A stretch of DNA of 43,860 nucleotides from Actinomycetota bacterium. Its GTDB lineage: Bacteria > Actinomycetota > Acidimicrobiia > Spongiisociales > UBA4744. Below, piece after piece: positions 20,889 through 42,307 of this stretch; positions within the stretch are counted from its first letter, which is position 1; every line of letters starts with the position of its first letter. The notes beneath the pieces are model-generated. The model was not told the DNA's origin, made no database searches, and saw only the letters and a program-made list of their open reading frames with translations. The translations under genes were made by a program, and so were the position numbers. The stretch covers positions 1 to 43,860 of the forward strand of contig JAADGS010000035.1 in NCBI GenBank assembly GCA_013152275.1, read 5' to 3'.

Positions 20889-20921
20889 GGTGAGAGACCG
20901 TTCGCGAATCTGTCTCTCACC
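20889..20921. repeat. Inverted repeat between iolB and recQ
   Basis: Arms GGTGAGAGAC / GTCTCTCACC flank an inner TTCGCGAA palindrome, just upstream of a TAGGTT hexamer (20927-20932). Confidence 0.6.
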
Positions 20922-20938
20922 ATGGGTAGGTTGACGCC

Positions 20939-23949: not shown

Positions 23950-24272
23950 ACCTCCGACACGTGGGCGATGCGGGAATCCTGCCGTTCGGTCATGATGCCA
24001 TGGCGCCCGAAAGGTCGGTGGAGCCGTCGACCCGTTCGATGCGGCCGTCCTGCCTGCGGCGATCGGCTCGGGCCGGGTGATGATCGGCGTTCGGAACGGG
24101 GGAGGCTCGACCCTCGTTGATCGAGCGACGTGGCCGCCTGGGGTGCGGAGTTGCCGGGAGGGTCACCTGTGAAGCAGGTCCATGTCTTCCCGCCCGCCTC
24201 ACGCCGTGGGCTGCGCGGGATTCCTCACATGTGTGCCGTGGAGGCGATCCCATCACAGCATTTCTGATACTC

Positions 24273-24292
24273 ATTATCTATAGTGCAATCAT
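24273..24292. promoter_or_regulatory. Putative MarR operator ATTATCTATAGTGCAATCAT
   Basis: AT-rich imperfect 20-bp palindrome; related sequences recur at 31001, 31031, 32855, 32873, 40006 and 40024. Confidence 0.55.
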
Positions 24293-24357
24293 CGTTGTAA
24301 GACCCTATGATCGTCGATGACAGGTGATGAGGTGGCAGTGACCGGAAGCGAGCAGTA

Positions 24358-25542
24358 ATGGGAGGCTTCGTCGCACCCGGGTTCGAGCCGGTATCCGAGG
24401 TGTTCGCTCGGCACCTCAGGGATGGCATCGAGAAAGGCGCAGCGGTGGCGCTGTACCGCCATGGCCGGCTGGTCGTCGACCTCTGGGGTGGTGAGGCCCG
24501 GCCGGGTGAGCGTTGGGCCGAGGACACCGTCGTGCCCGTCTTCTCCACATCCAAGGGAGCGGTGGCGCTGGTGGTCCAACTCCTGTGCGATCGCGGCGTC
24601 CTGGCGGTGGATCGGCCTGTGGCGGCCTACTGGCCGGAGTTCGGGGTCAACGGCAAGTCGACGATCACCCTCGAGCATGTTCTGACCCACACCGCCGGTC
24701 TGCCCTCGGTCCCCGACTACCAGGAGATCGTCACCCACGACTCGCCCGAGGGGTGGGATCGTCGTGAAGAGATCGTCTCCCGACTCGCCGCGGCAGCCCC
24801 CGAATGGGAGCCGGGATCGCGGCCCGGGTATCACGCCATCACCTTCGGGTGGCTCATCGGTGAAGTGGTGCGACGGGTGACGGGGCGTCCGATCGGAGAC
24901 GTGTTCGCCACCGAGATCGCCCGGCCGCTCGGAATGGACACCTGGCTCGGGATACCGGCGGAGATCACTGATCGGGTCGGCCATCTCATCGCGCCGCTTC
25001 CCCCCTCCGACCCCGAAGAGGCCGAGCTGCTCGCCCGGGTGCTGAGCCCGGAAACGGTTACCGCGCGCGCCCTCATGGTCGGCCCGAGCGGCGGGCTCGA
25101 TCACGTCGCCGAAGTGGCCAACAGCCCGCTCTTCCTGCAGGCGGAGATACCCGCCGGCAACATGGTCACCGACGCCCGGAGCGTTGCCCGCATGTACGCC
25201 ATGCTCGTGGCCGGCGGTTCCCTCGACGGGGTTCGGATCGTGTCCGAAGACTCGATCACCGAACACACCCGGGTTCGGGTGGAAGCCTACGATGAGGTGC
25301 TCATGAAGGACCGGCGCTACGCCCTGGGATACATGCTCCAGGCCGAGCCGATCGGGCGGTTCGGTCCCAACCCAAACGCTTTCGGTCATCCCGGAATGGG
25401 AGGGTCGGTCGGATTCGCCGACCCTCGAGCCGGGGTGAGCTTCGCATATGTGATGACCCAGATGGTTCCGGCGCTCGACACGGACGAACGGTCGCGGGCC
25501 CTGGTGGATGCCGTCTACGAAAGCCTGGAGGCCGAGAGGTGA
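24358..25542 (+). CDS. Serine hydrolase, beta-lactamase/family VIII esterase type
   Basis: FSTSK (SxxK), LTHTAGL, GYHAITFGW and FGHPGMGGSVGFADP. Confidence 0.9.
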   Translation: MGGFVAPGFEPVSEVFARHLRDGIEKGAAVALYRHGRLVVDLWGGEARPGERWAEDTVVPVFSTSKGAVALVVQLLCDRGVLAVDRPVAAYWPEFGVNGKSTITLEHVLTHTAGLPSVPDYQEIVTHDSPEGWDRREEIVSRLAAAAPEWEPGSRPGYHAITFGWLIGEVVRRVTGRPIGDVFATEIARPLGMDTWLGIPAEITDRVGHLIAPLPPSDPEEAELLARVLSPETVTARALMVGPSGGLDHVAEVANSPLFLQAEIPAGNMVTDARSVARMYAMLVAGGSLDGVRIVSEDSITEHTRVRVEAYDEVLMKDRRYALGYMLQAEPIGRFGPNPNAFGHPGMGGSVGFADPRAGVSFAYVMTQMVPALDTDERSRALVDAVYESLEAER

Positions 25543-25549
25543 ACCGACC

Positions 25550-26569
25550 ATGAAGATGCGGATGAACCAGGCCATCGCCCGGGCGTTGGCCGACGAGATG
25601 CGAGCCGACCCGTCCGTGGTCGTGTTCGGGGAAGACGTGGCCGAGGCCGGCGGCGTCTTCAAGACGAGCGTGGGACTGCTCGACGAGTTCGGTCCCATGC
25701 GGGTGCGAAACACCCCGATCTCGGAGCTGGCGATCGCCGGAGCGGCCGTCGGAGCCGCCGCCGCCGGGCTGCGGCCGGTGGCCGAGATCATGTTCGTCGA
25801 CTTCATCGGGCTGGCCCTGGACCCGATCGTCACCCAGGGCGCGTTCATGCACTACCTCTCCAACGGATCGGTCACTGCCCCGCTGGTCATCAGAACCACG
25901 GTGGGATCCGGTCGGGGCATGGGAGCGACCCACTCCCGCACGCTGGAGTCCTGGTTCCTGCAGGCGCCGGGACTGAAGGTGGCGGCGGTATCGAGCCCCC
26001 GGACCGCCTACGGGTTGTTACGAGCCGCCATCCGCGATGACGCTCCGGTGGTGATGCTCGAGCCAAAGATGCTCTACGGGAAACGAGAGGACTTCGAGCC
26101 CGGAGACGACGCCATCATCCCCCTCGGCCGCGGCGAGGTCGTTCGCTCCGGGAGCGACGCCACCGTGGTCACGCTCGGACCGACCGTCGATGTCGGGACA
26201 CGGGTGGCCGATGAATCGGCAGCCTCGCTGGAGGTGATCGACCTCCGGTCGATCCGGCCGTGGGACGAGGATCTCGTTTGTACATCGGTGCGCAAGACGG
26301 GCCGGCTCGTGATCGTGGAAGAAGGCCCCCACACCGGCGGCTGGAGCAACACCGTGGCCGCAACCGTCGGCGTCGAGCTGTTCGGAGAGATGAGGGCACC
26401 CATCTTCCGCATCACCAGCCCGGACGTTCCGGTTCCTTTCGCCCGGCGGCTCGAGACCGAGATGTACTTCCCGTCGCCGACCTGGGTGGGACCGGCCGTG
26501 GAGCGATTCCTCGACACCGACCAGGTGCCGCCCTTGTGGTGGCAAACCGAGCGAGGGGAGGCGAGCTGA
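25550..26569 (+). CDS. ThDP-dependent dehydrogenase E1 beta subunit
   Basis: FGEDVAEAGGVF, NTPISE, AEIMFVDF, THSR and EVIDLRSIRPWD. Confidence 0.9.
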   Translation: MKMRMNQAIARALADEMRADPSVVVFGEDVAEAGGVFKTSVGLLDEFGPMRVRNTPISELAIAGAAVGAAAAGLRPVAEIMFVDFIGLALDPIVTQGAFMHYLSNGSVTAPLVIRTTVGSGRGMGATHSRTLESWFLQAPGLKVAAVSSPRTAYGLLRAAIRDDAPVVMLEPKMLYGKREDFEPGDDAIIPLGRGEVVRSGSDATVVTLGPTVDVGTRVADESAASLEVIDLRSIRPWDEDLVCTSVRKTGRLVIVEEGPHTGGWSNTVAATVGVELFGEMRAPIFRITSPDVPVPFARRLETEMYFPSPTWVGPAVERFLDTDQVPPLWWQTERGEAS

Positions 26570-27606
26570 TGGCCATCATCGCCAAGACGGGGCCGAGCAG
26601 CACGTTCGATGGTTCATCGGCCCTCGAGCGGAGGGAAGCGGTGCGGTCCGACCGGGTCGCCCGATACGAGCGTATGGTCGAGATTCGCCTGGTGGAGCAA
26701 CGCATCAGAGACCTGCTGACGGAGGGACACGCCTGGGGCACCACCCACTCGTGTGACGGGCAGGAAGCGGTCGCCGTCGGCATCGCGGCCGCGGCCCGTC
26801 CGACGGACCTGGTGGTCGGCTCCCACCGCGCCCATGGGCTGGGAATGGCTCTCGGGATGTCACCCGAGGCGATCATCGCCGAGATAATGGGGAAGAGCGA
26901 CGGCGCAGTGGGCGGGACCGGTGGGTCCGCCCATCTCACCGACACGACGATCGGCCTGCTGTACACGGTGACCCTCATGGGCGCCGGCATCCCGGTGACC
27001 GTCGGGAACGCCATGGCCATTCAGGTGACGGGGAGCGACGCCGTGGCGATCTCGGTGTTCGGGGACGGTGCCGCCAACATCGGGGCGTTTCACGAAGGTC
27101 TCAACCTGGCGTCGGTGTGGAAAGTGCCGGCGGTGTTCGTGTGTGAGAACAACCATTACGGCGAGTACTCGCGGTATGACAAGACCACGCCGATCACCAT
27201 CATCGCCAAGCGGGCCGAGTCGTATGCGATGCCCTGGCTCCATGTGGATGGTCAGGACGTCGATGCGGTCGCCGCGGCCATCGAAGAGGCGATCGACCGG
27301 GCTCGCCGAGGCGGCGGTCCAACGCTCGTGGAGGCAAAGACGTACCGCTACCAGGGACACAACCGCACCGATCGGGCCGTCTACCGGCCCGAAGGCGAGT
27401 TGGAGGAATGGCTGGCACGTGATCCGATCACGATCCTGGGTGAGCGACTCGTCACCGAGGGTCTGCTGGATGCTGCCGGCATCGACGAGATCCGGGCCCG
27501 CGGCGAGCAGCGGGTCGAAGCCGCGGTGGAGTTCGCATTCGCCAGTCCCGAGCCGGACACCGCGGCGATGTTCCGCTACGTGTATCCGAAGGAGGTGGAC
27601 GCATGA
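26569..27606 (+). CDS. ThDP-dependent dehydrogenase E1 alpha subunit
   Basis: HSCDGQEA, GTGGSAH, FGDGA...CENN and TYRYQGH; TGATG coupling to the beta gene. Confidence 0.9.
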   Translation: MAIIAKTGPSSTFDGSSALERREAVRSDRVARYERMVEIRLVEQRIRDLLTEGHAWGTTHSCDGQEAVAVGIAAAARPTDLVVGSHRAHGLGMALGMSPEAIIAEIMGKSDGAVGGTGGSAHLTDTTIGLLYTVTLMGAGIPVTVGNAMAIQVTGSDAVAISVFGDGAANIGAFHEGLNLASVWKVPAVFVCENNHYGEYSRYDKTTPITIIAKRAESYAMPWLHVDGQDVDAVAAAIEEAIDRARRGGGPTLVEAKTYRYQGHNRTDRAVYRPEGELEEWLARDPITILGERLVTEGLLDAAGIDEIRARGEQRVEAAVEFAFASPEPDTAAMFRYVYPKEVDA

Positions 27607-27842
27607 TGGTGACCGTCAAGCTGCCCAAGCTCGGTGAACTCGCCGAGCGGGCGGTACTCCTCGAGTGGTGTTGCGCTCCCGGCGACGTCGTCGAGGTGGG
27701 TCAGGTGCTTGCCGAACTCGAGACCGACAAGGCAACGAGCGAGCTTCCCGCCCCCGTGGCGGGGAAAGTGGTCGAGCTGCTTGCCGCGATCGATGACGAG
27801 CTGACGGTGGGGGACCCGTTGGTCAGGATCGAGGCCGCATGA
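27603..27842 (+). CDS. Stand-alone lipoyl-carrier domain protein
   Basis: 79 aa with VKLPKLGE, GDVV, ETDKA (lipoyl-Lys) and PAPVAG; ATGA overlaps at both ends. Confidence 0.88.
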   Translation: MMVTVKLPKLGELAERAVLLEWCCAPGDVVEVGQVLAELETDKATSELPAPVAGKVVELLAAIDDELTVGDPLVRIEAA

Positions 27843-28642
27843 GTGATCGGATGACAGGCCGCATCGCCCTGATCACCGGAGGTGGGTCCGGCATCGGGGC
27901 CGCCACCGCCCGGCTCTTGGCCCGTGAGGGTGCCGACGTCGTGGTGGTCGAGCACCCCGATCGCTATTCCCAGGCTCTGCCCGTGGCCGAGGACATACGC
28001 CGGACGGGTCGGCGGGCGCTGATCGCCCTGGCCGACGTCGCCGACGAGAAGGCGGTCCGTGACGTGTTCGAGACCGCCGCCGGCGAACTCGGAGTTCCCG
28101 ATTGCGTGGTGGCTGCCGCGGGAGTGGCCGGCCACCCCGATCATGCCGGTCTCGGCTCCCTGGTGGACCTGGATACGGAACAGTGGCAGTTCGTTCTCGA
28201 CATCAACCTCAACGGCGTGTTCTTCACCATCCGTGAGGGTGCCCGGCGGATGATCGATGCCTCACGACCCGGTTCGATCGTGACGCTGGCCTCGGTGGCC
28301 GCAAAGATCCCGACTGCCGGGGTCTACTCGGTATCGAAGGCTGCGGTGTGGATGCTGACCAAGGCCCTGGCACTCGAGACCGCTCCTCACGGAGTGCGGG
28401 TGAATGCCGTCGGCCCCGGGTATATTCGGACGCCGATGCTGGACGATGCCGCCCGGCTCCGTGGTGGTGTCGCCGAAGACTGGTTCACCGAATGGAAGTC
28501 ACGAATCCCGATCGGGCGACTGGGAGAGCCCGAAGACGTTGCGCTCACCGTCCTCTTTCTGGCGAGCGACGACGCACGCTACCTGACGGGCTCCCTGCTG
28601 CATCCCGACGGTGGCATAACGGCGAGGTATGCCGGTGGCTAG
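27839..28642 (+). CDS. SDR family NAD(P)-dependent oxidoreductase
   Basis: TGGGSGIG, YSVSK and VNAVGPGYIRT. Confidence 0.92.
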   Translation: MSDRMTGRIALITGGGSGIGAATARLLAREGADVVVVEHPDRYSQALPVAEDIRRTGRRALIALADVADEKAVRDVFETAAGELGVPDCVVAAAGVAGHPDHAGLGSLVDLDTEQWQFVLDINLNGVFFTIREGARRMIDASRPGSIVTLASVAAKIPTAGVYSVSKAAVWMLTKALALETAPHGVRVNAVGPGYIRTPMLDDAARLRGGVAEDWFTEWKSRIPIGRLGEPEDVALTVLFLASDDARYLTGSLLHPDGGITARYAGG

Positions 28643-28658
28643 AGGAGGGGAATCGCCC

Positions 28659-29732
28659 ATGACCGATGCCTTGATCGTCTGGATCGCCGACCTCGGCGAG
28701 GATGGGGTGGGAGTCGCCGGGTCGAAGATCGCCAAGCTCGGGTCTCTGCGGACGCTGGGAGTGAAGGTTCCCAGGGGTTTCGCGCTCACCACCCATGCCT
28801 ACCTGCAGTTCATACGCGAAACGGGGCTTCGCAACGCCATCGAGAGATTCCTCGGCGAGGTTGACGATCCCGATGATATCGACCAGGTGGAAGCGGCCGC
28901 CGAGTCCATCCGCCGGGCGTTCCACGCGGCGCCGATCCCGCCCATCATCGGCGCCGCCGTCGAGGAGGCGTACGAGCTGTTGTCGGATGAATGCCGTGAT
29001 CTCAACGTTCCGGTGGCGGTGCGCAGCTCCGCAACCGGTGAGGACGGGGCAGAGGCCTCGTTCGCCGGGCAGTTCGAGACGGTTCTCGGAGTGAGCGGCG
29101 TCGGGGACGTTCTCGACGCGGTGAAGGTCTGCTGGGCCAGCTTGTACAACGGTCGAGCCGTCTCGTACCGGTTGCACCATGACCTGGACCACGCGTCGAG
29201 TCCGATGGCCGTGGGGATCATCGAGCTGATCCACGCCCGCTCGTCGGGAGTGGCGTTCTCGATCCACCCGGTCAGCGGCAAGCGCGACAGGATGGTCATC
29301 GAGGCGAACTGGGGATGGGGCGAAGCGGTCGTTCAAGGTTTGGTGACCCCGGATCATGTCGAGATCGGCAAGAGCGACCGGAGGGTGCTCACCTATCAGG
29401 AGCACACCAAGGTCGTGGTCTCCAGTTTCGACTATTCCCAGGGGAGGGTGGTGCAGGTGCCGATGCCGAGCCGCCTGGCGAACCGGCGCGTCCTGGACGA
29501 GGAGGAACTGGACACCATCGTCGACGCGGTCCTCGAGATCGAGGCGCACTACGGCTACCCGGTCGACGTCGAATGGGTGATCGGGCGCTACCGGCGGGTT
29601 GGTGAGCCGGTCGTGATCGTGCAGACCCGGCCGGAGACCGTCCACGCTCCGGCACCGTCCCGGGCTCGGCTGGGCTTCGATGTCGCCTCGATCGCTCGCC
29701 GTACCGTGTTGAGCCGTTCCGAGGATGGTTGA
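28659..29732 (+). CDS. PEP-synthase N-terminal ATP-grasp domain protein (phenylphosphate synthase PpsB-like kinase subunit)
   Basis: GSKIAKLG, VPRGFA, VAVRSSATGED...ASFAGQFET, WGWGEAVVQG, VDVEW and VQTRPET. The ORF ends after the ATP domain; RBS GAGGAGG. Confidence 0.88.
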   Translation: MTDALIVWIADLGEDGVGVAGSKIAKLGSLRTLGVKVPRGFALTTHAYLQFIRETGLRNAIERFLGEVDDPDDIDQVEAAAESIRRAFHAAPIPPIIGAAVEEAYELLSDECRDLNVPVAVRSSATGEDGAEASFAGQFETVLGVSGVGDVLDAVKVCWASLYNGRAVSYRLHHDLDHASSPMAVGIIELIHARSSGVAFSIHPVSGKRDRMVIEANWGWGEAVVQGLVTPDHVEIGKSDRRVLTYQEHTKVVVSSFDYSQGRVVQVPMPSRLANRRVLDEEELDTIVDAVLEIEAHYGYPVDVEWVIGRYRRVGEPVVIVQTRPETVHAPAPSRARLGFDVASIARRTVLSRSEDG

Positions 29733-30543
29733 TCGCCCGATCGGCCGAGCCGACATCGCCGGGTATCGGGGCATCCTGTGTGATCTGGACGGTGTCGTGC
29801 TTCGGGGCGGCCGGCTCCTCGACGGAGCGGTGCGGTTCGCCGAGATCGTCGCCGACCTCGGGGTGCCGCTGGTATTCGTCACCAACGGTTCCTGGCCGAA
29901 GGAGCAGGTCGTCGGCGAACTGGCTGCGGCCGGGTGGTCGATCGAGCCCCACGACATCGTGAATTCGGGCGACAGCATCGCCTTGGAAGCCAAAGGCTCG
30001 AATCAACCGCTGGTGGCGGCGGGGGGACCGGGCCTGCCGGTGGCGCTGGCTGCGGCCGGGATCGTCGTCGCGGCGCCCGAGGAGTTCCCACTCACCGGCG
30101 TGTCCGGGCCGATCGTATACGCGGTCACCGGAGAGCAGTTGTTCTCCTACGAATCGTTGACCTGGATCTACCGGCTGGTCGACGCCGGCCTGGAGCTCCT
30201 CTTCCCATCGGATGAGCGGTACTTTCCGCTGGCAGACGGCCTCGGTCCGGGCGGGGGACCGTTTCTCGCCGCACTCCGGGAGATGGTGCCCGGGGCCCGG
30301 GTCCGGATCTGCGGCAAACCGCACCCGCCGATGGTGGCCGCGGTCGGGAACCGGCTCGGGGGCGAAGGCCCCTTCTTGATGATCGGGGACAACCCCGATG
30401 TCGATCTCGTGTTTGCGCACGCCAACGGCTGGGACTGTCTGCTGGTCGCCACCGGAGCGGGGACGCCGGAGCGCATCGCCGCGTCGACGGCCCGCTTCAC
30501 CGCGGCCGGGCTGGCCGCGGTGGCCGACACCCTCGAGGCGTGA
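29725..30543 (+). CDS. HAD-IIA family phosphatase
   Basis: DLDGV, VTN, GKP and GDNPDVD. Confidence 0.88.
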   Translation: MVDRPIGRADIAGYRGILCDLDGVVLRGGRLLDGAVRFAEIVADLGVPLVFVTNGSWPKEQVVGELAAAGWSIEPHDIVNSGDSIALEAKGSNQPLVAAGGPGLPVALAAAGIVVAAPEEFPLTGVSGPIVYAVTGEQLFSYESLTWIYRLVDAGLELLFPSDERYFPLADGLGPGGGPFLAALREMVPGARVRICGKPHPPMVAAVGNRLGGEGPFLMIGDNPDVDLVFAHANGWDCLLVATGAGTPERIAASTARFTAAGLAAVADTLEA

Positions 30544-30978
30544 TCAGGCTCCGAGCATCTCCCGGAGGGCGTCGCGTCGCGCCGCGTCGACGAGCTCGAG
30601 GGTGACTCCCGACGGGAGCGTGACGTACACGAAGCTCGTGGGCCGGTCTTCGGGGCCCTCGTAACGCAGGGTGACGGTGGCCCCCCGATCGACCATGTGC
30701 CGGGTGGCGGCGGGGAGATCCTGCACCCAGTAGCCGAGATGCCAGGTCGTGGGCGCCAGCTTGCCTCCGGCGGGGGCGTCCACCAGCTCGATGTGGGGCG
30801 GGCCTTCGAGCGAGTAGACGAAGCGCAGTTCGGCGTCGAAGGGGCCGTCGGGGCTCATCATCGGTCGGTTCCTGGTTTGGATCGGCGTCCACCGTATGCC
30901 GAAGTCTTCGAGGTCGGCCATGGCCGCTTCCAGATCCTCGACTCCGACCCCGATGTGATACGGGCCTTCGAATTCCAT
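30544..30978 (-). CDS. VOC (glyoxalase/epimerase-like) family protein
   Basis: YHIGVGV, HIELV, WHLGYWV and TLELV give an H/E/H/E metal ligand pattern. Confidence 0.82.
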   Translation of the reverse strand: MEFEGPYHIGVGVEDLEAAMADLEDFGIRWTPIQTRNRPMMSPDGPFDAELRFVYSLEGPPHIELVDAPAGGKLAPTTWHLGYWVQDLPAATRHMVDRGATVTLRYEGPEDRPTSFVYVTLPSGVTLELVDAARRDALREMLGA

Positions 30979-31000
30979 CGTGTTCTGCTTTCCTTCCGAC

Positions 31001-31050
31001 AGTGTTGCTATAGAAATGATATGATCCTACATGATTACTATGGCATGTAG
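31001..31050. promoter_or_regulatory. Divergent promoter region with two putative MarR operators
   Basis: AGTGTTGCTATAGAAATGAT (31001-31020) and ATGATTACTATGGCATGTAG (31031-31050). Confidence 0.55.
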
Positions 31051-31079
31051 TCGATAGAGCCCTCGGAAGGAGGCTGCGG

Positions 31080-32798: not shown

Positions 32799-32854
32799 CG
32801 AATACGCCGGCAGTGACATGAGATCTTTCGCGACGATTTCGTGGGCGAAACAAA

Positions 32855-32892
32855 ATGATTCCTATATGGACCATCATCATGACAGTGATATG
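32855..32892. promoter_or_regulatory. Tandem putative MarR operators upstream of the ABC importer
   Basis: ATGATTCCTATATGGACCAT and ATCATCATGACAGTGATATG, offset by 18 bp. Confidence 0.55.
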
Positions 32893-32936
32893 TGTAGGAT
32901 AGATACATGTTGTACCCGTCTTGGAGGAGGCGAGCC

Positions 32937-34220
32937 ATGAAACGACCCGCGAAATGGGCTCTGCTGCTGGTATTCGTGCTGGTGGCGGCGGCCTGCGGAG
33001 GAGCCGCCGAGAGCACCGGATCCACCGATACCACTGCCGCAACCGACACCACCGCCGCAACCGACACCACCGCCGCAACTACCGAATCGACTGCCGAGAC
33101 GGCCGCTGCGGCGCCGGTCGAGCTGCCGACCGTCAAGATCGGCTCCGTCAACAGCCTGACCGGGCCGTTTCCGTTCCCGGAGGCCTCGGCGGCGGCTGCG
33201 GCGGTATTCGATCGGTACAACGATGATCCGGCACGCGCCTTCGACATCGAGTACATCATCGAGGACGACGCAGCCGACCCGGCAATCGCCACCCAGGCGG
33301 CTCGCAAGATCGTGTCCCAAGACGGCGTGGTACTCGTGGCGGGGGGTGCCAGCCTGCTCGATTGCATCGTGGACGGCGCCTACTACGCCGAGAACGGTGT
33401 CTACTCGATCCCGGGAACCGGCGTCGACGAAGGGTGTTTTGCATCCCGGAACATCGCCCCGGTCAACACCGGTCCCTGGCTGGGCCTGGTGGTATCGCTC
33501 TATTTCACGTCCGAGATCCTCGGTCATGACAAGATCTGTTACGTCCAGTTCGACACCGGCTCGGGCGCCGAAGCCCGAGCGGCCGCGGTGGCCCGTTGGG
33601 AGGCGATCACCGGCAAGACGCTGGCGTCTCTCGACCTCTACCCGCCCGGCGACGACCTGACTCCGTATGTGGTCAAGGCCATGGACACCGGCTGTACGGC
33701 TGTGTTCGAAGGCGGCCTCGACTTCACCGCCATCGCCTGGGACCAGGCCGTGGCCACCCAGGGCGCCACGTTCGATTCGGTGCACTTCACGTCGGCGTAC
33801 ACGTCGGGGGTGGCCGAAGCCATCCCGAATCCGGCCACACCGACGTACGCCAACTCGGAGTTCGAGCCGTTCACCGAGGTCGACTCTCCGGCACTGGCCG
33901 ATTGGCGCGGACTCATGGAATCCGCGGACGTCCCGCTCACCTCGTTCGCCGAGGGCGGGTACCTGGCAGGCTTGATCGCGATCGACGTCATCGAGAGCGC
34001 CGGCATCACCGCCGACGACGACACGGCGACGCAACGCTCCAAGATCGAGCAGGCGTTGCTGACGATGAAGCCGTTCGAGCATCCGATGCTCGGCGTTCCG
34101 TTCGTGTTCGGCGATGCCGAGAAGCACAACCCGAACTACGCGTCGAAGTTCGTTCAGCTCGTCGATGGCGAGTGGGTGACGGTTACCGACGAGTTCGTCG
34201 TACTACCGGATGAATCCTGA
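32937..34220 (+). CDS. ABC transporter substrate-binding lipoprotein (LivJ/branched-chain type)
   Basis: RBS GGAGGAGG; lipobox VAAAC; Thr-rich linker; KIGSVNSLTGP and IEDDAADP. Confidence 0.85.
   Translation: MKRPAKWALLLVFVLVAAACGGAAESTGSTDTTAATDTTAATDTTAATTESTAETAAAAPVELPTVKIGSVNSLTGPFPFPEASAAAAAVFDRYNDDPARAFDIEYIIEDDAADPAIATQAARKIVSQDGVVLVAGGASLLDCIVDGAYYAENGVYSIPGTGVDEGCFASRNIAPVNTGPWLGLVVSLYFTSEILGHDKICYVQFDTGSGAEARAAAVARWEAITGKTLASLDLYPPGDDLTPYVVKAMDTGCTAVFEGGLDFTAIAWDQAVATQGATFDSVHFTSAYTSGVAEAIPNPATPTYANSEFEPFTEVDSPALADWRGLMESADVPLTSFAEGGYLAGLIAIDVIESAGITADDDTATQRSKIEQALLTMKPFEHPMLGVPFVFGDAEKHNPNYASKFVQLVDGEWVTVTDEFVVLPDES
33024..33077 (+). repeat. In-frame 18-bp tandem repeat x3 (TDTTAA linker)
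   Basis: ACCGAYACCACYGCCGCA occurs three times. Confidence 0.85.
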
Positions 34221-34270
34221 GCCGGTGGACCGGGGAGGGCCGGCGTTGAACCGGCCCTCCCCGGACCGGC
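34221..34270 (+). terminator. Strong hairpin after the SBP gene (stabiliser or partial terminator)
   Basis: 14-bp arms CCGGGGAGGGCCGG / CCGGCCCTCCCCGG plus outer arms GCCGGT / ACCGGC. Confidence 0.65.
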
Positions 34271-34288
34271 ACGGAGAAGTGCTCCAGC

Positions 34289-35146
34289 ATGTTTGATGCT
34301 GCCATATCCGGCATTCCGTCAGGGGGAGCCTATGCCCTCATCGGGGTGACCGTCGTCCTGCTGTATCGGATGACGGGCACGCTCAACTTTGCGGCCGCCG
34401 TCACCGGTGCCTTCGGGGCGTTCACCGTCGTGGCGATCAACGGCGCCGGCGTCGGTCTCGGGGTGGCCGTCCTCGTCGGGATGATCGTTGGTGGCATCGT
34501 TTCCGGGCTGCTGGGCGTCGTGGCAGCCTTTCTCTTCTCCGACCACGACGAGATCTCGCGTTCGGTCGTCACGATCGCCATGGCGATCGGGCTGTTCGCC
34601 GTGGCGTTTCGTATCTTCGGAGACCAACCGCGGGCCTTTCCCCCGCTGTTCGGAGGATCGAACATCACTGTCGGAGGTGTCGTCCTGCCGACCTCGAACC
34701 TCGTGTCGGCGGCTCTTGCCCTCGGGCTTGCGGTTGGGATCAACGCCGTGTTGACTCGCACCCGTCTCGGCCTCAAGTACCAGGCACTGAGCGTTCGGGC
34801 GGCGACGGCCGAGGGTCTCGGTGTGCCGGTGCGGGGCCTGCTCGTCGGGGCCTGGGCCTTCTCCGGGTTCGTCGCGGCGTTCGCCCTCACCCTGGCGGCC
34901 CCGACCCGGCAGGCGGACATGACCTCACTCGGTCTCCTCGTGATTCCGGCGTTCGCCGCTGCCCTGATAGGTGGCTTCCGGTCGTTCACCTGGATCGCCG
35001 TCGGTGGGATCACCCTGGGTGTGTTCGAGGCGCTGGTGATACGCGTGAGGCCGCTCGCGACGTACCGCAGCGCGCTTCCGTTCGTCGTGATCGTCGCGCT
35101 GTTGCTGTGGACCCAGCGCCGGGCGATCTGGGATGAGGCTCGATGA
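34289..35146 (+). CDS. Branched-chain-type ABC permease (LivH-like)
   Basis: GGAYALIG, TGTLNFA, TRLG and FAAALIGG. Confidence 0.85.
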   Translation: MFDAAISGIPSGGAYALIGVTVVLLYRMTGTLNFAAAVTGAFGAFTVVAINGAGVGLGVAVLVGMIVGGIVSGLLGVVAAFLFSDHDEISRSVVTIAMAIGLFAVAFRIFGDQPRAFPPLFGGSNITVGGVVLPTSNLVSAALALGLAVGINAVLTRTRLGLKYQALSVRAATAEGLGVPVRGLLVGAWAFSGFVAAFALTLAAPTRQADMTSLGLLVIPAFAAALIGGFRSFTWIAVGGITLGVFEALVIRVRPLATYRSALPFVVIVALLLWTQRRAIWDEAR

Positions 35147-36894
35147 TCGGATCACTGTCTGCCCGCGTGCCGATCCGGCCGACGCATCCCATCGGCCTGG
35201 CCCTGGGAGTGGCCGCCGTCGGGTTCGTGATCTGGCTTCCGGAGTTCTGGACGTACCTGTTCATCGGGGCGGTGGTCAGCGCGCTCGTCGCGGCGAGTGT
35301 CGGCGTGGTCTACGGCAGCGCCGGGCTGGTATCACTCTGCCAGCTCACGTTTGCGGCAATTGGAGCCTGGACGATCGGGTGGCTGAACGTTCATACCGGG
35401 ATCCCGTTTCTGGCCTTGTTGTTGATCGGCGGAATCGCCGCGGTGCCGGTCGGGTTGGTGATCGGCCTGCTGTCCCTTCGTCTCCGGGGGATACACCTGG
35501 CCGTCGTCACCATGAGTTTCGCCGTGGCGAGCACGGTGGTGCTCCGCCAGATCGAGTTCCCCGGATCGCTGAGCAACCAACCCGTCCGACGCCCCGAGCT
35601 GTTCGCCAGTGAGAACGGGTACTTCCTGCTGGCGGTGGCCGTTCTGGTCGTGATCTTTGTCGCCCTGAACGCGATGCGGAAGAGGCCGGTCGGTCTCGCC
35701 TGGCGTGCCGTGCGCCACAGCGAGCGTGCGGCGGCGGCGTTGGGTTTGAACGTTCCCCTCTCCAAGCTGATCGCCTTCGCGGTGGGGGCATTCATCGCCG
35801 GAGTTGCCGGAGGTCTCCTTGTCGGTCAGAACGGCACCGTCAGCTTGCGGAGCTTCGAGGTGCTCGACTCGCTCGTCATCTTCACGGTCGCAGTCATGGT
35901 CGGGGCCGACTATCTCGAGGGTGCGGTCATGGCGGGGTTGTTCGCGACAGTCGTTCCCGAGCTCTTCCGGAACTGGAGCATTCCGCTGGACGTGGTTCCG
36001 ATCCTGTTCGCCATCGGCGCCATCGATATTCTTCGCCGGGGAGGGGACGGGATCAGCGGGCAGCTTCGCCGGCGCATGCGAACCTGGCGAGGTGCCGCAA
36101 CACGGGAAGAGGCGGTGGCCGGGGAGCCGGCACCAGCCGGTGTCATCGTGCCGGTGCAGGACGGTCCGGTCGGCGCGGCACGGCCGCCGGAGCTGACGAT
36201 CGAGGGCCTGAGCGTGAGGTTCGGGGCGGTGCGAGCACTCGACGGCGTGAGCCTCACCGTGCCGGCCGAATCTGTCGTCGGCCTGATTGGGCCAAACGGG
36301 GCGGGAAAATCTACGCTGGTCGATGTAGTGACCGGGTTCGTTCGCGGCGAACACGGTGTGGTCATGCTCGGGGGACGCTCACTGAATGGCCTCCCTGCAC
36401 ACTCCCGCGCGAGGAGCGGTTTGCGACGCACGTTTCAACAGGGAAGGGCGATTCCGGGGCTGACGGTCGAGCAGTACCTTCGCCTCGGCTCGAACGGGAG
36501 CGCCACCGACGCCGACCTCGATCGGGTCATCGACGCGCTCGGCTGCCCCGGCCGATCGGTGCGTATCGAGGAGATCGACATGCCGACTCGCCGCCTGGTG
36601 GAGGCCGCGGCCTGTTTTGTCGCAAGTCCGAAACTGGTCCTCCTGGACGAACCGGCGGCGGGTCTCGGTGAGGCGGAATCGGCCCGGCTCGCCAGGAGCA
36701 TTGCCTCGCTCCCGGAGCTGTTCGGCTGTTCCGTTCTCCTGATCGAGCACGATGTGGAAGTCGTCCACGCCGCCTGTGACTATGTCACCGTGCTGGATTT
36801 CGGGAAGGTGATCGCCCAGGGCCCACCCGCGGAAGTCTTCTCATCTCCCGAGGTGATGAGCGCGTTCCTCGGAAAAGTCGGGGTGGCGCCATGA
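35143..36894 (+). CDS. Fused ABC permease/ATPase (LivM-LivG-like)
   Basis: N-terminal AGLVSLCQ and LRLRGIHLAVVT; C-terminal GPNGAGKS, LLDEP and IEHD. Confidence 0.88.
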   Translation: MIGSLSARVPIRPTHPIGLALGVAAVGFVIWLPEFWTYLFIGAVVSALVAASVGVVYGSAGLVSLCQLTFAAIGAWTIGWLNVHTGIPFLALLLIGGIAAVPVGLVIGLLSLRLRGIHLAVVTMSFAVASTVVLRQIEFPGSLSNQPVRRPELFASENGYFLLAVAVLVVIFVALNAMRKRPVGLAWRAVRHSERAAAALGLNVPLSKLIAFAVGAFIAGVAGGLLVGQNGTVSLRSFEVLDSLVIFTVAVMVGADYLEGAVMAGLFATVVPELFRNWSIPLDVVPILFAIGAIDILRRGGDGISGQLRRRMRTWRGAATREEAVAGEPAPAGVIVPVQDGPVGAARPPELTIEGLSVRFGAVRALDGVSLTVPAESVVGLIGPNGAGKSTLVDVVTGFVRGEHGVVMLGGRSLNGLPAHSRARSGLRRTFQQGRAIPGLTVEQYLRLGSNGSATDADLDRVIDALGCPGRSVRIEEIDMPTRRLVEAAACFVASPKLVLLDEPAAGLGEAESARLARSIASLPELFGCSVLLIEHDVEVVHAACDYVTVLDFGKVIAQGPPAEVFSSPEVMSAFLGKVGVAP

Positions 36895-37661
36895 GCGCTC
36901 TGCTCCGGGTCGAGGATCTTCACGTGGACCGGGGAGGATTCCCGGTCGTCCGGGGGGTGGGGCTCGAAGTGTGCGAAGGATCGATCGCCGTTCTCCTCGG
37001 GAACAACGGTGCCGGCAAGTCGACCACCCTCGACGGGATCGCCGGGGCAATTCCGGTGGCCGGGGGCCGGGTGACCCTGTCCGGGCTCGAGATCACCCAG
37101 AGCCGGCCCTACCAGCGAGCCCGGTTGGGACTCGCCTATGTCGAGCAGGGGAAAGCGGTCTTTCCCGCCCTCACCGCCGAAGAGAACGTCATGGTGGCGG
37201 CTCCCCGAGGGCGGGCGCTCGAAGCCTTGGCGATGTTTCCGGAGCTTCACGATCGACGGAGGACTCCGGCCGGTTTGTTGAGCGGCGGCGAGCAGCAGAT
37301 GCTGGTTGTCGCCCGAGCTCTCTCGCTGCAACCCCGGGTCCTGCTCCTCGACGAGATCTCCTTCGGGCTTGCCCCGGTTATCGTGCTCCGGCTGATGGCG
37401 GCGGTGCGCCGCCTGGCCGACGACGGCATGGCGGTGCTCCTGGTCGAGCAGTTCGCCTCGCTGGCCCTCGAGGTGGGCGATCGGGCGTACGTCCTCAACA
37501 AGGGCACGATCGAGTACGAGGGTCCCTGCCGAACTCTCATCGAACATCCGGAGATACTCCACACCGCCTACCTGGGAATCTCCCCGGTGGCGCTCTCCGC
37601 CGATGCCGGTTTCGACGCCGACTCGGGTCGGGTCGGGTCCCGGTCGACTGGGGGTGCGTGA
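36891..37661 (+). CDS. ABC ATPase (LivF-like)
   Basis: GNNGAGKS, LSGGEQQM, LLDE and LVEQ. Confidence 0.9.
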   Translation: MSALLRVEDLHVDRGGFPVVRGVGLEVCEGSIAVLLGNNGAGKSTTLDGIAGAIPVAGGRVTLSGLEITQSRPYQRARLGLAYVEQGKAVFPALTAEENVMVAAPRGRALEALAMFPELHDRRRTPAGLLSGGEQQMLVVARALSLQPRVLLLDEISFGLAPVIVLRLMAAVRRLADDGMAVLLVEQFASLALEVGDRAYVLNKGTIEYEGPCRTLIEHPEILHTAYLGISPVALSADAGFDADSGRVGSRSTGGA

Positions 37662-39107
37662 GTGGAGCGTCGAGGTGTCTTCATCGCCGGGGACTGGGCG
37701 GGATCGGGGCCGCCGGTCGAGATTCGTGATCCCGCGGATGCTCGTGTTGTCGTCGCGACGGTCATGACCGGATCGCCCGATGATCTCCGAAATGCGGTCG
37801 CAGCCGCCCAGGCGGCGGTCTCCTGGCAGGTGACGTCCCCTCAGGAGCGCGCCGGCTACCTGTCGACGGCCGCCCGGCTGCTGCGCGAACGGGCGGAAAG
37901 GATCGCGGCCGAACTGGTCTCGGAGGAGGGCAAGACGCTCCGCGAAGCCGGCGGAGAGGTCATCCGGTCCGCCGCCACCCTCGAATACCACGCCGGTCAA
38001 GCCCTCCGGGCCCAAGGTGAGGTGCTCGCTCCGATCCGGCCGGGGGCGTTGACCGTGACGCGGCGCCGACCGGTGGGACCGGTGGCGGTGATCTCACCGT
38101 TCAACTTCCCGATGCTGGTTCCCGCATGGAAGATCGGGCCGGCGCTGGCCCACGGCAACACCGTCGTCTGGAAGCCTTCTTCACTGACACCCCTGACCGC
38201 CATCAACTTGACAGAAGCGTTCCACGACGCCGGTCTTCCCCCCGGTGTACTCAACATGGTGGTGGCCTCCGGCAAGGCCGCGGCAGGGAGCCTCATCGGT
38301 GCTCCCGGTATCAAGGCGTTGACATTCACCGGTTCCACCACGGCCGGACGCACCATCCAAGCGCGCCTCGGCGGGCTCGACACCAGAGTGCAGCTCGAGA
38401 TGGGGGGGAACAACGCGGCGATCGTGTTCGACGGCGTCGACGTTGCCCAGGTGGCGGCCGAGATCATCAAGGGAGCGCTGGCGGGATCGGGTCAGCGCTG
38501 CACCGGAATCCGGCGTGTCATCATCGCCGGTCGGGTCGCGGGAATCGAGGACGCGTTGGTGGCAGAAGCCGGCAGGTGGCGCGTCGGACCGGGGATGGAC
38601 CCGAACTCCGACATGGGCCCGCTGGTGAGCGCCGCGGCCCGGCGTGATGTCCTCGCCGGGCTGGAGCGGCTGGTGGGGGCAGGTGCCACGATCGTCACGG
38701 CGGACCGTACGGTCGAGGACGAGGTTTGGGAGCATGGCCATTTCGTGGCGCCGGCGATTGTCTCCAATCTGGATCCGGACGACGATCTGGCGTGCGAGGA
38801 GATCTTCGGTCCCGTCTTGAGCCTGTATCGGGCGGATACTCGGGACGAAGCCTTCCGACTGGCCAACGCCACCCCGTTCGGGCTCTCCCATGCCGTGTTC
38901 TCTCCCGAGATCGACGATGCCCTCGCCGCGGCGGATTCCCTCGAGGCGGGCATGGTCCATGTGAATGCGTCAGGCGGGGTCGCCCCCCACGTTCCCTTCG
39001 TCGGGTGGGGTGATTCCGGGTTCGGTCCGGCCGAGCAAGGCGAGACCGCCGTCGAATTCTTTACGCGAACTCAGGTCATCAATGTTCACGGTGCCCGGTT
39101 TGTCTGA
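37662..39107 (+). CDS. Aldehyde dehydrogenase
   Basis: SPFNFP, FTGST, LEMGG, GQRCT (catalytic Cys) and EEIFGP. Confidence 0.92.
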   Translation: MERRGVFIAGDWAGSGPPVEIRDPADARVVVATVMTGSPDDLRNAVAAAQAAVSWQVTSPQERAGYLSTAARLLRERAERIAAELVSEEGKTLREAGGEVIRSAATLEYHAGQALRAQGEVLAPIRPGALTVTRRRPVGPVAVISPFNFPMLVPAWKIGPALAHGNTVVWKPSSLTPLTAINLTEAFHDAGLPPGVLNMVVASGKAAAGSLIGAPGIKALTFTGSTTAGRTIQARLGGLDTRVQLEMGGNNAAIVFDGVDVAQVAAEIIKGALAGSGQRCTGIRRVIIAGRVAGIEDALVAEAGRWRVGPGMDPNSDMGPLVSAAARRDVLAGLERLVGAGATIVTADRTVEDEVWEHGHFVAPAIVSNLDPDDDLACEEIFGPVLSLYRADTRDEAFRLANATPFGLSHAVFSPEIDDALAAADSLEAGMVHVNASGGVAPHVPFVGWGDSGFGPAEQGETAVEFFTRTQVINVHGARFV

Positions 39108-39912
39108 GTCCGCCGTGGCACTTCTCGGAGCCGGCCGTTACCGGACCGTCCTGTTCGATCTCGACGGCACCGTATACATCGACGGCAAGGCGCTTCCGGG
39201 CGTCCCCGCCTTTGTGGAGGAGGCGCGCCGAGCGGGGCATCGAGTCGGCTTTCTCACCAACATGTCCTATCGATCCCGGGAGTGGTGCTTGGACGTCCTC
39301 CACCAGGTCCAGGTCGAAGCGAAACCGGATGAACTGATAACCACCGTGGACGTGATGGTGGAAGTTCTCCGCTCCAGAGGGATGAAGAAGGTGGCCGCCA
39401 TCGGCTCAGACGAGTTCCGGTCGCAACTCTCCCGGGCGGGGGTGCAGGTCGGAGACCTTCTCGCGGGGCCGATCCACGATCCGGATGCACTCGTTGTCGG
39501 AATGTGGCCGGGAGCCTCCCGGGAGTCGATCGCCGCTGCGGTCGGCCTGATCAGCAACGCGGTTCCGGTCTTCGCGACGTCGGGAGTCGGATCGTTGCCC
39601 ACCTCGAACGGGTTGGTGTCGGGAGCGGCCGGCATCGTCCGTCGACTCCGGGAGGGCTCCGGCATGCCGGTGACGATCACCGGGAAACCGGGTCGACTCT
39701 TCAGCGATGTCGTCAAGCGTCGTCTCGACCTCGTCGATCCGGTGCTGGTGGTCGGAGACACCATCGAGGTCGACATCGTCATGGCAGACAGCAACGGTTG
39801 GGACTCGCTGCTGGTGCTCACCGGTGCCTCCAGCGACCACCAGGCCCAGGCGATGACGGGGGGAGGAGGGCCCACGTATGTCGCACGCACGCTCGACGAC
39901 GTCGAGATGTGA
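39100..39912 (+). CDS. HAD-IIA family phosphatase
   Basis: DLDGT, LTN, GKP and GDTIEVD. Start uncertain (TTG 39100 or ATG 39082). Confidence 0.85.
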   Translation: MSESAVALLGAGRYRTVLFDLDGTVYIDGKALPGVPAFVEEARRAGHRVGFLTNMSYRSREWCLDVLHQVQVEAKPDELITTVDVMVEVLRSRGMKKVAAIGSDEFRSQLSRAGVQVGDLLAGPIHDPDALVVGMWPGASRESIAAAVGLISNAVPVFATSGVGSLPTSNGLVSGAAGIVRRLREGSGMPVTITGKPGRLFSDVVKRRLDLVDPVLVVGDTIEVDIVMADSNGWDSLLVLTGASSDHQAQAMTGGGGPTYVARTLDDVEM

Positions 39913-40005
39913 GAGATCCGGCCGGTGCTCGTCACCGTTTCGGCTGCCGGTGTGGCTGCCGTCCGGGACGGTTGACGGCGACGGTGTTGGTAGTTCCTGT
40001 GGTCT

Positions 40006-40043
40006 AATATTATTGTGGCAATAACAATCACAGTAGGAATAAT
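40006..40043. promoter_or_regulatory. Tandem putative autoregulatory MarR operators
   Basis: AATATTATTGTGGCAATAAC and ACAATCACAGTAGGAATAAT, offset by 18 bp, directly before marR. Confidence 0.6.
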
Positions 40044-40052
40044 CAACACACC

Positions 40053-40523
40053 ATGATGAATCAAGAATATGACCCACTCGAGCGGGGTTTCGAGCGCTCG
40101 GTTCCGATGATGTTCTACCGGGCACTGGACGCGGTCCTTCCCCCGTTCCGGGAGATCTTCGCCAAGTTCAACATCACCCAACCCCAGTGGCGTGTTCTCC
40201 GGGTCCTGTGGGACGAGGACGGCCAGAACCTCACCTCGATTGCCGAGCGAACGCTCATCGTGCCCACGGTGCTCGTTGGGATCGTCGACCGGCTCGAGCG
40301 CGATGGCAGGGTCGAACGGCGGCGGTCGCACAAGGACCGACGACGCGTGCACGTTTGCCTGACCGAGAGCGGGCGGGCGCTCAAAGACGATGTGGTGCCG
40401 CTCGTGCGTGACGTCTACGTTCAGTTACAGGCAGCCCTCGAACCGGAAGAGTGGGCAAACCTCTACGACGCCATCGACAAACTCATCGAGGCCGAAAACA
40501 ACGCCCGCGCGACTTCTGTGTGA
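40053..40523 (+). CDS. MarR family regulator, HpaR-like
   Basis: ITQPQWRVLRVL, IVDRLERDG and DRRRVHVCLTESG. Confidence 0.9.
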   Translation: MMNQEYDPLERGFERSVPMMFYRALDAVLPPFREIFAKFNITQPQWRVLRVLWDEDGQNLTSIAERTLIVPTVLVGIVDRLERDGRVERRRSHKDRRRVHVCLTESGRALKDDVVPLVRDVYVQLQAALEPEEWANLYDAIDKLIEAENNARATSV

Positions 40524-40734
40524 CCTCGGACCGACGCGGCGGACATCCGCACGCGTGAGCATCCGATGCTGCACGAGACTGCGTAGGCCGGCCGGTCCGG
40601 CTCGGTTGGCCCCCGGCCCAACGCGATCGGGACACACCGACTGATGAGACGAAGGGGCGGGGCCGAGCGTCTCGCGGGCGCAGGGTTCGCCGCCGGCAAG
40701 ACGGGCGTGCCGACCAAGTGCCGCGTGCAGCCGG

Positions 40735-41367: not shown

Positions 41368-41531
41368 GCCGACACGGTATGGCACGGGTGTGACAGAACC
41401 GCCGCGCCGGTCGGCCGTAGACACCAGATCGCGAAACTCCAGACCGGTGGGTCGATCGTGTGGGCGTATGTTCGCGGGGGCACGTCGTGGGCGGCCGACA
41501 CTCGCAGCATGGGTATGGCACAGCGTATGGC

Positions 41532-42178: not shown

Positions 42179-42307
42179 AACCGCTGCACCGGAGATCGTG
42201 ATGTCGGTCATCGAGTGTCGATGGGCGCGGGCTGTTGCTGTCCATCGACGCCGCACCTGTGGTCGCAGCAGCGGCAGAGAACCCGCGCAGGACGCGGAGG
42301 TCACCCG

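Follow-up and report, generated by a model that had tools for sequence, protein, structure and literature searches.

The literature covered describes three types of catabolic pathway in which a two-component phenol dikinase performs the first step: Pps, Cre, and Hpe/Acv. According to the accessible part of PMC7764795, the Cre pathway of Corynebacterium glutamicum comprises the kinase CreHI, the P450 CreJ, the dehydrogenases CreG and CreC, and the phosphohydrolase CreD. The available sections of PMC12167813 describe HpeHI as an ATP-grasp subunit combined with a phospho-His subunit, report about 45% mutual identity within the PpsA/CreH/HpeH clade, and call it unclear why such catabolic routes start with phosphorylation. 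A kinase of matching architecture, termed here KinI and KinH, is encoded in a stretch of 43,860 nucleotides from an actinomycetotal genome of the class Acidimicrobiia (contig JAADGS010000035.1 of assembly GCA_013152275.1; the whole stretch is referred to as the window, and the genome as G000). It belongs to a cluster of 16 genes that also encodes the two subunits of a thiamine diphosphate (ThDP)-dependent E1 component, a free lipoyl domain, and two phosphatases of the haloacid dehalogenase (HAD) type. With a probability of roughly 0.5, the cluster is proposed to carry out phenol O-phosphorylation, side-chain oxidation, E1/lipoyl-dependent C-C cleavage of a C6-C3 or longer compound, and dephosphorylation to 4-hydroxyphenylacetate. 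The genes of the cluster (24358-40523) are the following:

24358..25542, plus strand: serine hydrolase with a beta-lactamase fold, family VIII esterase-like (PF00144, 232 bits; S63-x-x-K, STSK)
25547..26569, plus strand: ThDP E1 beta subunit (PF02779 and PF02780; 61-76% identity to cluster orthologues)
26569..27606, plus strand: ThDP E1 alpha subunit (PF00676; GDGA..NN motif in the E1 pair)
27603..27842, plus strand: stand-alone lipoyl domain of 79 aa (PF00364; DKA motif, Lys43; 50-81% identity in five other genomes)
27839..28642, plus strand: short-chain dehydrogenase/reductase (SDR; PF13561; YSVSK; PDB matches include R-specific alcohol dehydrogenases)
28659..29732, plus strand: KinI, ATP-grasp subunit of a two-component dikinase (PF01326 alone, 320 bits)
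29725..30543, plus strand: HAD-IIA phosphatase 1, HAD1 (PF13344; DLDG; an orthologue group of its own with G210 and G261)
30544..30978, minus strand: single-domain VOC protein (PF13669; metal ligands His/Glu/His/Glu)
31080..32798, plus strand: KinH, substrate-binding and phospho-His (His528) subunit (PF00391 at the C-terminus; GGSLTH)
32937..37661, plus strand: whole Liv-type ABC importer (Pfam; 44-85% identity in orthologous clusters), made up of the next four genes
32937-34220, plus strand: binding protein of the importer
34289-35146, plus strand: permease of the importer
35143-36894, plus strand: permease-ATPase fusion of the importer
36891-37661, plus strand: ATPase of the importer
37662..39107, plus strand: aldehyde dehydrogenase (ALDH; PF00171; best model GucD, below cut-off)
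39082..39912, plus strand: HAD-IIA phosphatase 2, HAD2 (DLDG; TIGR01460 passed, 104.8 vs 100.15)
40053..40523, plus strand: MarR regulator, HpaR-like (best model TIGR02337 (HpaR), 94.6, below the cut-off of 121.2)

All 16 reading frames are intact, the catalytic motifs are preserved, and the families agree with those first assigned (open reading frame listing, Pfam, NCBIfam); every gene named in the first-pass annotation is present. Its description of the MarR protein as HpaR-like holds for the best-scoring model and falls short of that model's cut-off. The genes from the serine hydrolase to HAD1 form a first plus-strand run with intergenic gaps of -8 to +16 bases, and those from the binding protein to HAD2 form a second, followed by the MarR gene; the VOC gene is divergent from that of KinH. 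The HAD1 and VOC genes lie between KinI and KinH, and in relatives the kinase pair is adjacent, H then I. A frameshifted single phosphoenolpyruvate (PEP) synthase was rejected, as KinI and KinH are separate intact genes 1.35 kb apart. As the first-pass annotation had stated, the cluster contains no P450 and no carboxylase or carboxyltransferase gene, and tblastn searches of the G000 genome with P450 (two queries), UbiD (one query), and PpcA and PpcB gave no match, nor did a query for an HD-type phosphohydrolase. Two biotin-carboxylase matches in G000 are both located on contigs other than that of the cluster.

The proposed function is that of an upper catabolic route, which would convert a 4-hydroxyphenyl compound with an oxygenated C3+ side chain to 4-hydroxyphenylacetate or a 3-substituted analogue. 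The substrate would be of the type Ar-CH2-C-C... (a diol, ketol/acyloin, lactate, or pyruvate), perhaps freed from an ester. All the steps are predictions, the dikinase mechanism being established for relatives only. After Liv-type import and, where needed, ester hydrolysis, KinI would move the beta-phosphate of ATP to His528 of KinH and from there to the phenolic hydroxyl, with release of AMP and Pi; the phosphate might both trap the substrate and protect the ring. The SDR and the VOC protein would then take the side chain to the 2-oxo or ketol state, upon which E1 would cut the C-C bond beside the carbonyl and oxidatively transfer the fragment bound to ThDP to the free lipoyl domain. Either the serine hydrolase or a housekeeping E2 might then unload this domain, with a housekeeping E3 reoxidizing it. 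Finally, the ALDH would oxidize any aryl-acetaldehyde set free, and a HAD phosphatase would take the phosphate off.

The architecture of the kinase is that of a two-component dikinase: KinH combines a substrate domain of the rifampin phosphotransferase (RPH) type with a C-terminal swivel domain, and KinI is an ATP-grasp protein without other domains. As references for PpsA, CreH, and HpeH, proxies from plasmid clusters were picked by gene order in place of characterized H proteins (L301 for the cre order, L302 adjoining annotated ppc genes, and L303 for the hpe/acv order). KinI is 38% identical to I subunits of the Pps/Cre/Hpe type and 59% to its cluster orthologues, and it matches HpeI (PDB ID: 9GOJ) with 151 bits. 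In KinH, the motif CDTGGSLTH fits the xxGGxxxH pattern with His528 as the phospho-His, although it begins with Cys where PMC12167813, in the sections available, gives T/S. The predicted model of KinH (pLDDT 91) has RPH (PDB ID: 5fbt) as its best Foldseek match over the whole length (TM 0.65).

KinH is 27-29% identical to the three proxies, which are 43-45% identical to each other. A first, quick tree of 59 rows was followed by a careful one of 37 rows (23 rows dropped, namely four long branches and near-duplicates, and G901 added), in which KinH is a member of a separate 24-row clade (100/99) outside the 11-row Pps/Cre/Hpe clade (100/100). It falls with neither RPH nor PigC-type enzymes, in line with the first-pass annotation. 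Trp44, His49, His173, and His354 are invariant in 15 alignment rows of both clades and are not kept in the RPH-like row; Glu352 is also shared with the Pps/Cre/Hpe-type proxies. On PRK08296 models KinH scores 231 bits, vs 108 on RPH and 106 on PigC models. Because of the shared Trp and His residues and this order of scores, KinH probably works like the Pps/Cre/Hpe kinases. Phenol phosphorylation, as assigned in the first-pass annotation, is inferred from these residues and from the gene neighbors, not by orthology, since KinH is not an orthologue of PpsA, CreH, or HpeH.

A search for KinH relatives at E <= 0.001 gave 388 protein clusters, with identities of 48-92% for the top 120. Of 160 loci fetched, drawn from 180 metagenome relatives (80 taken) and 161 genome relatives (80 taken), 123 contain KinI and 114 a phosphatase. 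Among the 89 KinH-clade loci of at least 12 kb, 64 contain a gene for a ring oxygenase or for meta-cleavage, as do none of 16 control loci; this is a strong trend and not a statistic, the aromatic markers having been picked from the same loci, many of them close kin, which tells somewhat against the proposal. Within the clade (loci L024-L182), Actinomycetospora and Pseudonocardia combine KinH with a Rieske oxygenase, a HAD, and meta-cleavage genes, and Streptosporangiaceae with an inositol-monophosphatase-family protein, a methionine-synthase-like protein, and LigAB. Other loci contain a P450 and a Zn-dependent alcohol dehydrogenase (L035, L128, L131, L140), a biotin carboxylase and a HAD (L025-L027, L110), or a phenol hydroxylase (L029, L031). 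Each of these pairings may be an undescribed pathway. If the proposal is true, the sister clade of KinH would represent plug-in kinases for many phenolics, with P450, Rieske oxygenase, or biotin carboxylase partners. The cluster draws attention to a so far unstudied clade of kinases with ties to aromatic catabolism in Actinomycetota.

The ThDP motifs of E1 alpha and beta and the lipoyl lysine are intact, and the carrier domain has the DKA motif. No cognate E2 acyltransferase or E3 is encoded in the cluster; elsewhere G000 encodes LipA and, with scores above cut-off, three E2 domains and an E3. E1 alpha scores under the cut-offs for pyruvate dehydrogenase (PDH; 298.8 vs 393.85). Those E1-alphas that are linked to the kinase group in a single clade (FastTree 0.999), marked by Trp56 in 7/7 members and its absence from 20 other rows, and the branching of this clade agrees with the KinH tree for the members from Acidimicrobiia. 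Sister E1 modules (41-59% identity), mostly with a short free lipoyl reading frame, are found in sugar/sugar-acid or amidohydrolase settings, with neither KinH nor KinI beside any of 16; therefore, E1 and a free lipoyl domain constitute a general cleavage module in these bacteria, of which one lineage is tied to the kinase. A precedent for this combination in Haloferax found no confirmation in PMC3235422, where the word 'lipoyl' does not occur.

The residue preceding a conserved Arg is Tyr in human PDH and His in E1 alpha, in the latter presumably an AcoA-like motif, and the best plasmid match of E1 alpha neighbors an AcoC-type E2. On these grounds, and because AcvAB rejects phenolic acids, a neutral ketol or diol substrate is ranked somewhat above 4-hydroxyphenylpyruvate or -lactate. 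The acids rejected by AcvAB are vanillate and 4-hydroxybenzoate (bioRxiv 2022.04.28.489975, in its accessible part). Either 4-hydroxyphenylpyruvate or -lactate is a possible substrate that would suit a Liv-type importer.

The cluster is real, conserved, and rare. Its gene set recurs in other genomes, which passes the conservation check set in the first-pass annotation: three members of two other families within the host's taxonomic order (G210, G276, and G261) have it in a reshuffled arrangement, with matches for 16/16 genes in G261 and G276 (on two contigs, the MarR match being weak) and 14 in G210, and G901, from another class, has 13 distinct cluster genes matched. The MarR gene ends the cluster also in G210, G276, and G261. 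Partial clusters are present in G639 and L023; the former (72% complete) has E1, lipoyl, SDR, KinI, and VOC genes on a 4.3-kb contig and no close KinH. A class search of 401 genomes found four others with KinH of at least 45% identity, of which G210, G276, and G261 (53-54%) have the cluster and G328 (45%) is without it. In an order search of 401 genomes, the best four non-self E1-alphas (62-80%) are all kinase-linked (G639 at 80%, G261, G276, and G210). At the level of the phylum, the cluster occurs in G901 alone of 400 other genomes, where the E1-alpha and SDR genes are each present twice, and 250 further genomes of its class contain no close KinH. A protein listed by NCBI under Gaiella occulta (P0041) is nearly identical to the kinase of G901. 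As gene order differs between genomes, the gene set appears to have been kept together through reshuffling. A search of four intergenic regions for a shared operator gave no 10-, 12-, or 14-mer in common when 1-3 mismatches were allowed.

In G901, one E1 beta, two diverged E1 alphas, and one lipoyl domain lie in a row (C4 191230-194570; L327:15231-18570), possibly giving two specificities on one beta subunit, and the importer block also contains an acyl-CoA ligase, an alpha/beta hydrolase, and an AcuI/YhdH-family reductase. A kinase of the Pps/Cre/Hpe clade is encoded on contig C9 of G261 (L218) with one UbiD, UbiX, a HAD-IIA, a PaaK-family ligase, and Hcr-like and Bcr-like genes, a locus that is likely a variant of anaerobic phenol carboxylation in Acidimicrobiia; kinases of this clade also occur in G060, G031, and G639.

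The identity of the product is suggested by linkage to genes of 4-hydroxyphenylacetate (hpa) catabolism. In G210, the cluster continues into HpaB-like and LigB-type HpaD-like genes ahead of HAD2 and MarR; in G276, these are joined by an HpaE-like ALDH, an FAA hydrolase, a ligase of the PaaK family, and an MppR-like protein, interleaved with the cluster. A role of MppR-like proteins in the homoprotocatechuate route found no confirmation in the literature covered. The best solved relatives of the HpaB-like and HpaD-like proteins are 4-hydroxyphenylacetate 3-hydroxylase and 3,4-dihydroxyphenylacetate 2,3-dioxygenase; in G261, the hpa-like block lies on a separate contig. In G901, a divergent hpa operon begins 360 bp from the importer, with all scores above the cut-offs (HpaB 658/480, HpaD 396/321, HpaE 725/638, HpaG 332/276, HpaI 406/397). 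This set is unrelated to that of G210, its HpaD being VOC-type and its HpaB 36% identical. In L131, the nearest P450-linked kinase cluster, HpaR exceeds its cut-off, and an HpaF-type isomerase is encoded along with an ALDH that shares 46% identity with that of the window. Because the cluster is linked to two unrelated hpa sets, its product is named as 4-hydroxyphenylacetate or a 3-substituted analogue, and since this implies a C6-C2 product, substrates with a benzylic CH2 are favored over hydroxyphenylglyoxylate or ring-conjugated Hibbert diketones. The sequence of phosphorylation, cleavage, and dephosphorylation given in the first-pass annotation is partly supported, and the two latter substrates suggested there are retained only in the foremost alternative.

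The remaining enzymes are compatible with such a route to varying degrees. The serine hydrolase, with carboxylesterases as its best PDB matches and orthologues of 49-57% identity in G261, G276, and G901, is a candidate esterase, or a thioesterase acting on the acyl-lipoyl intermediate, and the SDR probably acts on a secondary alcohol. The VOC protein is a candidate isomerase, epimerase, or glyoxalase-type enzyme; its metal ligands are conserved in four correctly framed alignment rows, it has orthologues in G261, G276, G639, and L023, and its single-sequence structure prediction reached pLDDT 45. The ALDH is a candidate (phospho)aryl-acetaldehyde dehydrogenase, with 42-50% identity in the E1 clusters and 46% in the P450/hpa-linked L131 and L140. 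The two HADs belong to separate orthologue groups, both kept in G000, G210, G276, and G261; that of HAD2 includes the sole HAD of G901. For the importer, PDB sequence searches gave no match to the binding protein (nor to the VOC protein), Atlas look-ups returned generic family names only, and the plasmid neighbors of binding-protein homologues (dehydrogenases, amidohydrolase) point to no ligand.

Several observations weigh against the proposed route. The identity of KinH to the characterized type is only 27-29%, its score on NF006153 (PRK08296) is 231 bits against a cut-off of 578 (745, 809, and 772 for L301, L302, and L303), and the join of its clade with the Pps/Cre/Hpe clade is weak (97/67). 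E1 adjoins the kinase in one of the 160 KinH loci (L127, which is G276), G210 and G276 are of one genus, and in G901 the importer/esterase block lies about 9 kb from the kinase/E1 block, with unrelated genes between. The hpa-like genes of G210, G276, and G261 all score below cut-offs (HpaB 358/480, HpaD 157/316, HpaE 509/638). The second HAD and the VOC protein have no explained role. A search of the host genome (3.07 Mb, 100 contigs, 100% complete by markers) gave no match for HpaB, LigB, PaaA/C, or COX1, none for a flavin phenol hydroxylase at E <= 1e-15, and one small VOC match only; its five molybdopterin and two 2-oxoacid:acceptor oxidoreductase matches include no recognizable system of the Pad type. 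Being without hpa, paa, and Pad genes, the host has no evident use for 4-hydroxyphenylacetate. This mismatch would mean either that the product is 4-hydroxybenzoate, that the upper pathway was acquired alone, or that the genes are absent from the assembly.

The host's own gene set makes a C6-C1 product, formed by the same logic, the first alternative to 4-hydroxyphenylacetate, though an unlikely one. The carbonyl or carbinol would then be ring-borne, as in 4-hydroxyphenylglyoxylate, -mandelate, or -glycol, 2,4'-dihydroxyacetophenone, and Hibbert ketones of the type Ar-CH(OH)-CO-CH3; the phosphate would prevent the phenolate from deactivating the carbonyl, and 4-hydroxybenzoate would proceed to 4-hydroxybenzoyl-CoA reductase. 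On contig C76, G000 encodes Hcr-like (alpha 882 vs 995) and Bcr-like proteins and a ligase of the PaaK family, all below cut-off, which also counts against the C6-C2 route, and NarG is above cut-off; the host seems to be an anaerobe that respires nitrate and can reduce 4-hydroxybenzoyl-CoA. Hcr-like genes scoring 790-863 are present in G210, G276, G261, and G639 as well. The VOC protein and a thioesterase could form a glyoxalase pair acting on an aryl-glyoxal, and the chemical rationale for the phosphate would be clearest here; the carboxylase of Hpe requires the phosphate (PMC9618137, in its accessible part). However, linkage to hcr, pobA, or pca was seen in none of the cluster loci fetched, whereas three are linked to hpa through two non-orthologous sets, and G901 is without an Hcr-like gene (best 496 bits). 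C76 (L309, L329) also bears a Liv importer, and two genomes of the same genus are likewise without a COX1 match.

A recent island, carrying no ring degradation, is a rather unlikely account of the cluster's role in G000, and would be compatible with the route to 4-hydroxyphenylacetate: the side-chain fragment and NADH would be harvested and the aromatic acid excreted, or the genes would be mere passengers. No orthologous KinH or close E1-alpha was found in 19 genomes of the same family, identity to G639 (of another family) and L023 reaches 69-85%, a tyrosine-recombinase gene and an RHH/PIN pair lie on the right and RecQ-DprA on the left, and the lower pathway was not found in the host genome. 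On the other hand, 16/16 frames are intact with GC at third codon positions of 0.77-0.85, the GC difference is small (0.665 for the cluster vs 0.638 for the genome), and the lower pathway might be unassembled or unrecognized.

It is quite improbable that the kinase targets not the ring hydroxyl but a side-chain alcohol, the enol of an aryl-pyruvate (in the manner of PEP synthase), or a small polyol, with the HADs acting on those esters: the subunit's shortfall on the PRK08296 subfamily model passed by all three phenol-kinase proxies, the sugar-acid or amidohydrolase contexts of the sister E1 and lipoyl modules, the fact that the ALDH is closest to 2,5-dioxovalerate dehydrogenases, and the use of the same fold by rifampin and prodigiosin ligases would fit such a target, but the substrate-domain His and Trp are common to KinH and the phenol kinases and not to the RPH-like row, the PRK08296 score of KinH is twice its RPH or PigC scores, and genes for P450, Rieske, biotin carboxylase, and ring-cleavage enzymes accompany its clade. 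The phosphorylation site of rifampin is an aliphatic hydroxyl. An assembly artefact is unsupported, given public-run contigs that cover 30/30 bins of 23900-43860 at about 30-44x without an indel before 41449, although the covering run may be the source sample itself. Three public runs each contain at least half of the sampled words and belong to a single study with the label hydrothermal vent metagenome, and no RNA runs are listed among the public runs holding words of the window.

The host contains a second phosphorylation-type cluster (contig C59, ~3000-22300; L227, L315) with E1 alpha and beta, a Liv-type importer, a UPF0261 protein, a PEP-hydrolase-like protein, and GntR, together with a xanthine-dehydrogenase-type trio, a cyclase, a Zn-dependent alcohol dehydrogenase, and a low-molecular-weight phosphatase. 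Its KinH-like phospho-His protein is without a nearby ATP-grasp partner, and the KinI query matches the window alone in the genome. UPF0261 is the MarK aromatic-kinase family (PMC12624787, in its accessible part), and loci related to the C59 cluster were found in other genomes of the family and order. In the window, positions 2105-11341 encode a sugar-type ABC importer, a DeoC-like aldolase, a nucleoside hydrolase, a phosphorylase, and another E1 alpha/beta pair without a lipoyl gene. An inositol catabolism-type region follows (11442-20789: monophosphatase, ALDH, LacI, ThDP enzyme, TIM-barrel isomerase, PfkB kinase, and IolB). The left flank of the cluster (20939-23949) contains a RecQ-like helicase and DprA, and the right flank (40735-43612) a short tyrosine-recombinase gene, the RHH/PIN pair, and a 434-aa reading frame without a Pfam match.

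No described pathway in which such a kinase accompanies E1 and a lipoyl domain, nor a gene-for-gene match to a characterized one, was found in the literature covered (the text of mostly open papers, without figures and supplements); the kinase trees in Figs S3-S4 of PMC9618137 could include the KinH clade. The cluster is tentatively regarded, at somewhat less than even odds, as a fourth phosphate-protected phenol chemistry, namely an O2-independent cleavage of aryl ketols by ThDP and a free lipoyl domain, with a serine hydrolase in place of E2 and a kinase that would be the first member of a large sister clade. If true, it would shorten phenolic side chains independently of O2, which would be useful for lignin-derived monomers. 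ThDP-dependent cleavage after phosphorylation would also separate substrate trapping from chemical protection, by asking whether E1 needs the phosphate.

With the Cre pathway, the cluster shares a two-component dikinase, side-chain oxidation by SDR and ALDH on a phosphorylated phenol, and a closing dephosphorylation. In contrast, KinH is 28% identical to the Cre-type proxy, and P450, ferredoxin, and reductase are absent, whereas the ThDP E1, lipoyl domain, VOC protein, esterase, and ABC importer are additional. The phosphatases differ as well: those of the cluster are HAD-IIA, while the Cre-ordered L301 has an HD-domain protein at the creD position, CreD presumably being an HD-type phosphohydrolase. 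A HAD phosphatase, which the first-pass annotation had ascribed to both Cre and Hpe, thus seems to hold for Hpe and not for Cre, HpeD and AcvF being of the NagD/HAD type.

The Hpe pathway of Rhodococcus rhodochrous GD02 and the Acv pathway of Sphingobium SYK-6 resemble the cluster in the ATP-grasp subunit and the substrate/swivel subunit with its catalytic His, the NagD-type HAD phosphatase, and a net side-chain C-C cleavage (accessible parts of PMC9618137 and PMC12167813). Unlike them, the window is without biotin carboxylase, CoA ligase, and beta-ketoacyl-CoA hydrolase, and cleavage would be ThDP/lipoyl-dependent; KinH and the HADs are 28% and 24-25% identical to the Hpe-type proxies, and KinH has Leu instead of Met two residues ahead of the His. 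PpsAB(C), which acts with phenylphosphate carboxylase in Thauera and Azoarcus, has the same architecture and phospho-His motif, whereas KinH is 29% identical to the Pps-type proxy L302, and no Ppc/UbiD genes are in the cluster or were found in the genome. RPH is the only solved structure spanning all of KinH (TM 0.65-0.68, 17-18% identity), but it is a single chain, its sequence match spans 314 residues, and the RPH-like row lacks the shared His residues. The alpha/beta ThDP E1 with a lipoyl carrier is likewise found in AcoABC(L) and the 2-oxoacid dehydrogenases, from which the cluster differs by the missing E2 catalytic domain and E3, the free state of the lipoyl domain, and an E1 alpha that is below the PDH cut-offs and forms its own Trp56-containing clade. 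The phosphorylation-first principle and the family of every part are already known; the kinase clade and the downstream module are new.

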